From the IMG/VR virus record IMGVR_UViG_3300037067_001795, positions 1-64,000 of that record: a DNA stretch of 64,000 bases; one strand, 5' to 3'. This document shows positions 13,403-14,639 of this stretch, in pieces. How positions within the stretch are numbered: the first letter of the stretch is position 1; every line of letters begins with the position of its first letter. Under the pieces are notes generated by a model. The model was not told the origin of the DNA and did not search any database. It was given only the letters and a program-made list of their open reading frames with translations. The DNA is from a virus. Taxonomy: Duplodnaviria; Caudoviricetes. A program made the translations under genes and the position numbers.

Positions 13403-13769
13403 CCCGCAAACTGTCTATCGGTTACACTTGCCGTTTCGCGGGATTTGGTTTGTGAGAAGCATCGCTGGTCTCGGTTACAACGCGCCTATCGCTTCTCGTT
13501 GGTTTGTCCTGACACGTTGTCCATCGGTTACAACGAGCACATCGTCAGGAGTTTGGATTGGGCTCTCAATGTGATGCTCGGTTGCATACGTACAATCGAG
13601 GGCCGTTTGTATTGGGGCTGTCCAGGTGCTCTTTCGGTTACAAGTCGATGATCGGACAGCCGTTGGATTGGGCCTAGCACCAGTCAAATCGGTTACAGGT
13701 TGATGTTCGCTAGGCTTTGTAAGGTGCCTGACAGGGGTGGAGTCGGTTACAATTCCCGTCTCGTCAGGC
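13403..13769 (-). repeat. TIGR-like stem-loop guide array, downstream of the Nop-domain gene (7 units)
   Basis: Plus-strand TCGGTTACA (one copy TCGGTTGCA) at 13418, 13471, 13524, 13578, 13634, 13689 and 13743. Each copy has exactly 10 nt on the left and 11 nt on the right inside a 5-8 bp stem whose sequence differs between units. Confidence 0.9.
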
Positions 13770-14639
13770 TTTGTACGGTTTGAAGGGTGTATGAGTCCAT
13801 TCCAGCCAGAGGTTCTTGAGTAGGAGTTTGGTAGCCAGCAGCATACCGTGACGGTGAGCGTGTCCACACTTCTCGCCAATACCTCCGCAGGTCATACACT
13901 TCTTCTTGGCTGGGTTCTTGCCCTTGCACTTGTCGCAGGGCTTCCACTCCCACTCTGGGTGTGTTTCGTGAGCCCTTATTTTAGCGTTCAGCCAACGTGT
14001 GCGGTACGGTCCCTCGCCGTTTTGCTTGATGATGTTTTCGCCTATCACGTAGGCAATGCTACGGCGTCGCGGACTGTAGCCGAAGTCAGTCCAGTCCTCT
14101 GCCGTCAGCTTGGTCACGGTCTTCTTGCCGCCACGGCTGCGCCACGAGGAACCCATCAGCGTCACATCGTCCTTCGTGTACGGTGCGCAGCCTAACCTAC
14201 GCCACACCTTCGCGGGATTGGCATAGTTGTTCAGGTCACCGGTCTCGCCGATGATAACAGCCAACGACATGATTCCGAAGCCAGCCTGCTCCGGCTCCGC
14301 GACCCACTTGGCCACGGGCATCCGCTTGGCCACACTGAGCATCTCCTTCTCGTAGATGGCCTGCTGCGCATCAAAGCCGTCCACAGCCAAGCACGTGGTC
14401 ATGATGAGACTACGGATCTCATGCTCGTCGCCCTCTATTACGCCCTTGATCACCTTGGTGGCTTCGCTGTACAGCTTCAGCCGTTCGCTCTCCTTCAGTC
14501 CACTACTGTAGCCCATCGTTCCAGCCACGGTAGCTTGGAGCCTATTGGCGATCATGATCCTAGACTTGATCACCCATGCTCGCTGTCGCTGCAAGGCTTG
14601 GAGTTCCGCGGACATGTCGGCCACTTCTTGCTTCTTCAT
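13764..14639 (-). CDS. IS110/Nop-domain protein lacking a nuclease domain (TasA-like)
   Basis: Coiled-coil N-terminus, then GFGIMSLAVIIGETGDLNNYANPAKVWRRLGCAP (IS116/IS110 C-terminal/Nop region), GYSPRRRS and HAHRHGMLLATKLLLKNLW. No DEDD/RuvC N-domain. Start MKKQ with AAGGAG. Confidence 0.85.
   Translation of the reverse strand: MKKQEVADMSAELQALQRQRAWVIKSRIMIANRLQATVAGTMGYSSGLKESERLKLYSEATKVIKGVIEGDEHEIRSLIMTTCLAVDGFDAQQAIYEKEMLSVAKRMPVAKWVAEPEQAGFGIMSLAVIIGETGDLNNYANPAKVWRRLGCAPYTKDDVTLMGSSWRSRGGKKTVTKLTAEDWTDFGYSPRRRSIAYVIGENIIKQNGEGPYRTRWLNAKIRAHETHPEWEWKPCDKCKGKNPAKKKCMTCGGIGEKCGHAHRHGMLLATKLLLKNLWLEWTHTPFKPYKA

Follow-up and report, generated by a model that had tools for sequence, protein, structure and literature searches.

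A probable stem-loop TIGR-TasA system in a tailed phage, with an optional putative zinc knuckle and a linked second gene

TIGR-Tas systems are very compact RNA-guided DNA binders that require no protospacer-adjacent motif and are under development as tools; their natural roles and the maturation of their guides are live questions. One of their architectures is TasA, a Tas protein without a nuclease (Faure 2025, PMC12045711), which was reported in the same study to have no clear protein associations except occasional ParB-like genes. The stem-loop representatives PlTasA, MbTasA, and BlTasA bind unit-sized stem-loop tigRNAs, with a coiled-coil dimer on one tigRNA; their spacers pair with opposite DNA strands, the target is bound tightly, and transcription is repressed reversibly without cutting (Faure 2025; Guan 2026; Xu 2026 preprint). 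Here we analyze a locus found in positions 1 to 64,000 of the IMG/VR virus record IMGVR_UViG_3300037067_001795, a stretch of 64,000 nt that we call the window. The locus comprises a gene for a 291-aa protein (tasA, 13764..14639, minus strand), two arrays of stem-loop guide units that flank it, and a gene for a 178-aa protein (p178) farther upstream. Our results indicate that this is very probably a stem-loop TIGR-TasA system of a tailed phage, which would act by tigRNA-guided binding without cutting. The system is of a known kind, TasA with stem-loop arrays having been described by Faure 2025 and TasA as an RNA-guided repressor by the Xu 2026 preprint.

The minus-strand reading frame is open across 13764..14654. 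Its likely start is the ATG at 14639, which is preceded by AAGGAG (14651-14646) 6 nt upstream and gives the protein of 291 aa. An AlphaFold2 model of this protein, for which 50 homologues were used (predicted local distance difference test, pLDDT, 93.1; predicted template-modeling score, pTM, 0.86), begins with helices 3-40, 50-68, and 76-105, which form a coiled-coil hairpin. A compact helical domain follows, and the model closes with a last helix (259-282) plus nine further residues; all of its 291 aa are covered by the coiled coil together with the Nop-type domain. When the model was compared to the PDB with Foldseek, ranks 1-10 were all TasH or TasR (E 1e-5 to 2e-4, probability 1.00; TasH 9VZX, 9W03, 9W02, 21KL, and 9W04; TasR 9MTY) and the next ranks were IS110-family recombinases. 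VIA-align, which is independent of Foldseek, gave Z 14.4 for TasR (9mty_B, 188 residues aligned, root-mean-square deviation 3.0), Z 13.8 for TasH (207 residues, 22% identity), and Z 12.2 for ISCro4, after which the scores fell to 8.9 for generic coiled coils; the TasR and TasH alignments span residues 8-291 of the phage protein. At the sequence level, residues 23-281 were matched by the NCBIfam model NF052498 (TIGR_Tas_endo, TIGR-Tas system RNA-guided endonuclease) with E 1.2e-19 over profile positions 11-214 of 215, and a PDB profile search with the TasA family returned 9MTY as its best match (E 0.0097). On the basis of the Foldseek ranks, the VIA-align scores, the NF052498 match, and the flanking stem-loop array that recurs in relatives, the product of 13764..14639 is almost certainly a nuclease-free member of the TIGR-Tas family, namely a TasA.

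The best structural matches, TaTasR (9MTY) and SpTasH (9W04, 9VZX, 21KL), share 19-22% identity with the phage protein over the Nop/coiled-coil part. These proteins possess an N-terminal RuvC or HNH domain and use 36-nt dual-repeat tigRNAs, whereas the phage TasA begins where those nucleases end. Indeed, its residues 11-289 superpose in VIA-align on residues 112-317 of TasR, the portion that follows the RuvC domain, and TasA therefore corresponds to TasR minus its N-terminal RuvC domain. Pfam detected no RuvC, HNH, or DEDD domain in TasA. The original prediction had described a TasA-like RNA-guided DNA binder that opens directly with a coiled coil and carries no RuvC, HNH, or DEDD nuclease, and the gene model, the predicted structure, and the family matches all agree with it. 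This reading is correct in kind yet not new.

The only Pfam match of TasA was to the IS110 C-terminal domain (Transposase_20, residues 125-161, E 0.047), which is sub-threshold. The NCBIfam IS110 model also matched weakly (E 1.4e-7, profile positions 120-265, 31 bits relative to a 140-bit cut-off), as did PHROG 4285, annotated as transposase (E 2e-8). These matches might suggest that the gene is the decayed remnant of an IS110-family transposase, reduced to the C-terminal domain and located beside chance repeats with no guide function. The RNA-binding C-terminal domain of the bridge-RNA recombinases IS110, IS621, and ISCro4 is of the same fold (Z 12.2 as above), with weak sequence similarity; in contrast to these recombinases, the phage protein has no DEDD/RuvC-like domain and no single bridge RNA, its guides are arrayed, and transposon ends were not seen. 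Moreover, the TIGR-Tas model matches far better (E 1e-19), more than 437 tasA homologues are full-length with the same architecture (nearly all of them unnamed metagenomic proteins), and the arrays covary and recur in relatives. It is therefore extremely improbable that tasA is a transposase remnant.

The original prediction had also placed the protein next to an array, and our analysis confirmed this association. We identified 14 units on the tasA strand, seven on either side of the gene. The upstream array (units u1-u7) spans 14665..15061 and the downstream array (u8-u14) spans 13403..13769, both on the minus strand. The two arrays were parsed around the loop motif, and a minimum-free-energy fold of the downstream array also yields its seven hairpins. 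All units follow the layout stem-CGA-N9-UGUAACCGA-N9-UG-stem: a stem, CGA, a 9-nt spacer A, UG-UAAC-CGA, a 9-nt spacer B, and UG followed by the second strand of the stem. With one mismatch allowed, the motif TGTAACCGA occurs 13 times on the tasA strand, from 13418 to 15042. GA is kept in 13 of the 14 units and UG in all 14, and the stem-closing C is invariant and paired with an invariant G. Two units deviate in detail: unit 5, whose loop is UGAAACCGU, and unit 7, which presents CGG for CGA. The stem sequences vary between units yet keep their complementarity, with pairs 3-9 intact in 12-14 of the 14. A total of 42 cells were found to be changed on both sides of the stem relative to 14 ± 3 in shuffles, and the stem covariation score was 0.768 compared to 0.159 for shuffled stems (none of 500 shuffles reached it) and no more than 0.19 after sliding of the 3' partners. 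The units are 40-54 nt long and separated by linkers of 8-18 nt that are A/C-rich and mostly G-free; those of the downstream array measure 8-11 nt, are A/C-rich, and contain no G. The tasA stop codon shares nucleotides with the 5' stem of u8.

The arrays are co-oriented with tas in all loci and UG lies 3' of each spacer, as in published tigRNAs; for these reasons, we infer that they are transcribed on the tasA strand. The UG at this position, box D, is as in published systems. The resemblance to described stem-loop TIGR-TasA systems, PlTasA (Faure 2025; Guan 2026), MbTasA, and BlTasA (Xu 2026 preprint), extends to the nuclease-free Nop/coiled-coil protein, to arrays both up- and downstream, and to units in which a palindromic stem of variable sequence goes with two 9-nt spacers and a 9-nt loop between them. 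Stem-loop Tas proteins are also described as lacking the extended C-terminal loop with its Y/H processing dyad; in the phage TasA, helix 259-282 is followed by 9 aa (HTPFKPYKA), a tail that includes one H and one Y and is not conserved in the family alignment. Relative to the published descriptions of these three proteins, on which the comparison is based, the phage system differs in its box C (CGA, not CUU), in a Cys4 knuckle located before the last helix, and in the conserved p178 gene upstream.

Family membership and anatomy make the mechanism of the published TasA proteins the best explanation for this locus as well. A single minus-strand transcript would carry p178, seven guide units, tasA, and seven further units, and each unit would be freed as a tigRNA of about 40-54 nt. 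Within it, the variable stem would close a loop containing the two 9-nt spacers, both of them flanked by CGA (box C) on the 5' side and by UG (box D) on the 3' side. One tigRNA would be held by a TasA dimer assembled through the N-terminal coiled coil, and the two spacers would pair with opposite strands of an 18-bp site. Since TasA has no nuclease domain, the complex would merely occupy the DNA and thereby block transcription or replication of the target. Based on our analyses, TasA is highly likely to act by such non-cutting, guide-dependent DNA binding, and repression of its targets would be the consequence.

The Nop fold and the box C/D-like layout of the guides are also common to small nucleolar ribonucleoproteins (snoRNPs), and TasA could accordingly be thought to bind or modify RNA as box C/D snoRNPs do instead of binding DNA. 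The locus presents no fibrillarin-type or other modifying partner of known fold, TasR is inactive on RNA substrates, and the characterised TasA proteins bind double-stranded DNA according to published work. An RNA-directed activity is consequently very unlikely. The Nop5 and Nop56/58 proteins of box C/D snoRNPs combine a Nop domain (PF01798) with a fibrillarin-binding N-terminal domain, and their K-turn guides are bound by L7Ae. PF01798 did not match TasA at E up to 1, no snoRNP chain was present among the listed fold matches, and Rfam detected no family within 13000-15900, including no small nucleolar RNA family.

Two side observations concern the variation of the arrays. At 14874-14898 and 14936-14960 (minus strand), the linker and stem edge that follow units 2 and 3 occur in duplicate (22 of 25 positions identical) with different adjacent spacers, a pattern consistent with array growth by unit duplication. 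Strains of the phage were also compared in wastewater metagenomes (runs X3, X5, and X6) on the basis of contigs. Their tasA and p178 genes are ~90-99% identical to those of the window, and the contigs break inside the arrays (window 13403-13570 and 14990-15060), with loose contig ends that bear the loop motif TCGGTTACA with other spacers. Among the differences listed for units 13-14, all are located in spacers, which hints at a turnover of spacers between strains. The complete locus was found in one landfill and one groundwater metagenome. No RNA data set was listed as containing it; four wastewater runs labelled RNA-Seq are flagged as probably DNA.

We identified 74 tas loci in IMG/VR, at least 19 of which present the same unit architecture with the loop UGNAACCGA on the tas strand and on both sides of the gene. 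The genome collection contained only distant TasA relatives (≤41% identity) in assorted bacteria, and none was detected in 30 relatives of the genome with which the phage was co-binned. Some TasA homologues are annotated with PF27659. Several related loci additionally carry intragenic tigRNA units within the tasA frame (L007:6628, L008:3522, L009:6664, L011:6637-6769, and L013:6697), a feature described in the Xu 2026 preprint. These units lie at an insertion after a conserved KQN and their loop GAAACCGA translates as E-T-D/E; the tasA of the window has no such unit.

The genes of the window include those for a portal protein, a head morphogenesis protein, a tape measure protein, a DNA polymerase, a helicase, Sak4, an exonuclease, a resolvase, and a uracil-DNA glycosylase (UDG), and the replicon that hosts the system is a tailed phage of roughly 72 kb. 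Its closest relative is a complete phage of 73,385 bp with terminal repeats, ~72% identical over 14% of the genome. On contig C6 (73,771 bp), the last 1.8 kb (71960-73771) repeats the first 2.1 kb (window 1-2099) with ~90-92% identity, the final 127 bases being identical. The genome is thus probably circular or terminally redundant, with two strain variants joined in the assembly. The co-binned assembly reaches 4.85 Mb with 6.4% contamination, whereas genomes of the same genus measure 0.9-2.0 Mb; it is therefore probably a mixture of organisms and doubtful as the phage host.

We searched for targets of the 14 guides using both tandem geometries and gaps of 0-2. The published TIGR-Tas text reports 8-nt 3' overhangs, whereas its stated cut position would instead give 10 nt; from the 8-nt overhangs we infer that a single strand reads spacer A and then the reverse complement of spacer B. 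Because these two published values disagree, both geometries were kept in the local scans. In the 4.85-Mb assembly, no gap-0 site with at most one mismatch was found; seven sites had two mismatches relative to ~5.7 expected, and one gap-1 site with one mismatch was located on contig C2 relative to ~0.4 expected. Five sites were found in 1.0 Mb of related phage DNA compared to 4.3 in controls, which corresponds to chance level. Exact 18-mers of guides 8 and 9 each had one match in IMG/VR, with no second guide on the same contig. We estimate these matches to lie at about chance level for an 18-mer, the base count of the collection not being given; 18-mers match by chance in collections this large. 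The Xu 2026 preprint encountered the same difficulty in finding targets for TIGR spacers generally. We consider a different mobile element or a host gene the probable target. Alternatively, the guides might be directed at genes of the phage itself and form a programmable switch of its lifecycle: lifecycle regulation is among the possible roles considered in the Xu 2026 preprint, and the system is located amid early replication and recombination genes. Contig C6, however, contains a single self-target site at three or fewer mismatches compared to a mean of 4.1 for shuffled spacers, and none at one or fewer, which makes such self-regulation improbable.

Several results weigh against a TIGR-TasA system that binds DNA under guide control without cutting it. 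The NF052498 match scores 71 bits, below the curated cut-off of 100. Box C is CGA in this locus, whereas characterised systems have CUU or CCA. The numbers of G.U and A.C pairs across 193 stems (27 vs 19) are undecisive for the transcribed strand. The searches of the phage, the co-binned genome, and the 1 Mb of related phages revealed no guide target. Finally, the conservation of p178 leaves room for an activity beyond plain steric blocking.

The p178 gene (15069..15605, minus strand) is a conserved upstream neighbour of tasA and encodes a basic, all-helical protein of no known family (pI 9.5; the model is all-helical with two lobes, pLDDT 85). Its homologues were found by tblastn in 22 loci. 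When the 94 tas loci with 900 bp or more of upstream DNA were scanned with a hidden Markov model of p178, 52 contained it directly upstream, invariably on the tas strand and ending 115-1159 bp 5' of the tas match. Of the 28 closest viral loci, 27 carry p178, as do prophage-like loci of Methylobacterium, Bosea, Magnetospirillum, and others. Guide units often occupy the gap between p178 and tas and at times precede p178 as well. In the reverse test, starting from members of the p178 family, tasA and/or guide units adjoined in all four contigs with available DNA. The remaining neighbours of tasA recur in no more than a few closely related phages. For a scan aimed at loci with p178 alone, the full alignment was too variable, and a sub-alignment found just its own seven contigs. 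The family comprises 1052 clusters at 50% identity, nearly all of them stand-alone proteins of ~170 aa. The p178 protein is co-inherited with tasA and putatively accessory.

This association raises the alternative that the locus encodes a two-protein system, in which p178 would be an obligatory partner, either as a maturation or loading factor of stem-loop tigRNAs or as an effector at the DNA site, and in which binding alone would not be the output. The frequent linkage to tas on the same strand, the position of p178 often embedded among guide units, the result of the reverse test, the lack of conservation of other neighbours, the size of its stand-alone family, and its basic character are all in line with such a role, and the Xu 2026 preprint leaves "auxiliary factors" possible in the processing of stem-loop tigRNAs. 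On the other hand, no p178 was detectable in 42 of the 94 tas loci, and published stem-loop TasA and TasR systems need no such gene for processing and activity in E. coli. No invariant motif of p178 looks catalytic (R59, L106, and G107 are its sole invariant residues and its His residues vary), and the protein has no known fold or family: searches of Pfam, NCBIfam, PADLOC, PHROGs, and PDB sequences returned no match, and neither did the model in Foldseek against the PDB and BFVD, in a wide VIA search, or in the ESM Atlas. A complex prediction of two TasA copies with p178 scored 0.00 relative to a mark of 0.32 and decides neither way. An obligatory role of p178 is thus conceivable although rather doubtful. 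In a broader form, the p178 family might belong, as a component not described so far, to the core of a large stem-loop TasA branch, which would then consist of two-protein TIGR systems with p178 maturing or loading the hairpin guides or acting at the DNA site and with the knuckle as an optional add-on; we consider this proposal plausible enough to be entertained but tentative.

The TIGR-Tas papers that we consulted do not mention a p178-like partner. A parallel is provided by the TasA-TasParB operons (Faure 2025, fig. S14), in which TasA also shares an operon with a second small protein, one with a ParB/Srx-like N-terminal domain, and guide units are located around and between the two genes. 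In those operons, however, the arrays are dual-repeat, whereas they are stem-loop here, and p178 has no ParB match: no ParB signal was found by Pfam for p178 and its 22 homologues or in the Foldseek and VIA lists of p178. Two other genes of the window can be mentioned in this context. A 506-aa protein (18962-20482, plus strand) has no match in Pfam or NCBIfam and matches only PHROG 5931, of unknown function; a homologue lies near tasA in L018, a phage that shares many neighbours, and nothing marks the protein as TasParB. A phage CsrA homologue is encoded at 10522-10701 on the minus strand (PF02599, E 3e-19), and CsrA-like open reading frames (ORFs) are found near tasA in L011, L019, L020, L022, and L125.

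The original prediction had proposed that co-occurrence with homologues be examined for both the 15069..15605 gene and a ribbon-helix-helix (RHH)-like gene. Such co-occurrence was found for the former, as seen above, and not for the latter. The RHH-like ORF (15655..15867, minus strand, 70 aa) stands at the head of the unit; it has no homologue, and no conserved small ORF exists upstream of p178, in the 22 loci with p178. Because it is not conserved in related loci, this ORF is probably outside the system. A promoter-like site on the same strand, TAAACA-17-AATAAT (15866..15894), is located directly upstream of the RHH-like ORF and is a match to consensus only. Farther upstream, a terminator-like hairpin of 15 pairs followed by a T tract (15931..15965, minus strand) closes the upstream UDG operon.

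The second distinctive feature of the locus is a putative Cys4 zinc knuckle, CDKC-x9-CMTCGG (CDKCKGKNPAKKKCMTCGG), which covers residues 235-253 of TasA (13881..13937, minus strand). As had been predicted, this insert precedes the terminal helix: it belongs to an insertion (residues 228-258) that sits between helix 211-226 and helix 259-282. The insertion is basic, with K or R at 8 of 30 residues. The lysine-rich knuckle is composed of two CxxCxGx(G/N) motifs, CDKCKGKN and CMTCGGIG, 9 residues apart, which are shared with the DnaJ cysteine-rich domain and anti-TRAP (CXXCXGXG); all scores are below family thresholds. TasA homologues matched the DnaJ profile PF00684 weakly (E 2e-4 to 5e-4), and a PDB profile search weakly matched the knuckle to the DnaJ zinc finger 1exk (E 0.05) and to anti-TRAP. 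Unlike in these proteins, the phage knuckle has just one four-Cys centre and forms part of a Tas protein. We also considered the knuckle as a remnant of an HNH domain and ruled this out because the CxxC pairs are only 9 residues apart and enclose no His/Asn core. The window contains another DnaJ-type motif (CIACGGTG...CLPCNGKG), in a putative gene of 64 aa (8889-9083, minus strand), which overlaps the ORF 8335..8970 in another frame.

The four cysteines are present in only 8 of the 28 closest viral loci, and the remaining close loci show a clean deletion of ~27 residues (..HPDW-xxLRC-HRHGMLL..). On a quick, weakly supported tree of 78 relatives, the knuckle was present in 46 proteins and cleanly absent from the rest, with ~13 gains or losses compared to 25 changes when labels were shuffled. 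At least two of these changes are forced by well-supported branches, and the tree includes a 14-member clade without the knuckle. The presence of the knuckle does not track p178 and is independent of stem length (median 7.3 vs 7.25 bp) and of unit period (54.1 vs 54.0 nt). Since it is cleanly absent from many relatives and unlinked to the dimensions of the tigRNA, the knuckle is dispensable. It occupies the site named "insertion 2" in the Xu 2026 preprint, between CTD4 and CTD5, where structurally heterogeneous insertions were described as a possible molecular ruler for target geometry. Judging from its composition and distribution, the knuckle is most likely an optional, zinc-stapled basic hairpin that would add contact with the nucleic-acid backbone. 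The TIGR-Tas papers that we checked mention neither zinc nor cysteine in any Tas protein, and among the matches listed for a full-text search for "TIGR-Tas" and "zinc" we found only general reviews and methods papers.

Taken together, this locus brings no new principle to TIGR-Tas biology. It defines a phage clade characterized by a CGA box C, an optional knuckle, and a linked second gene. What goes beyond the literature that we searched is the CGA box of this clade, its optional putative zinc knuckle, inserted at a site believed to face target DNA, and, most notably, the p178 family with its tight linkage to tasA. If p178 proved essential to the processing of guides or to what binding brings about, it would help explain the maturation of stem-loop tigRNAs and would alter what must be co-expressed to use such TasA proteins as tools.

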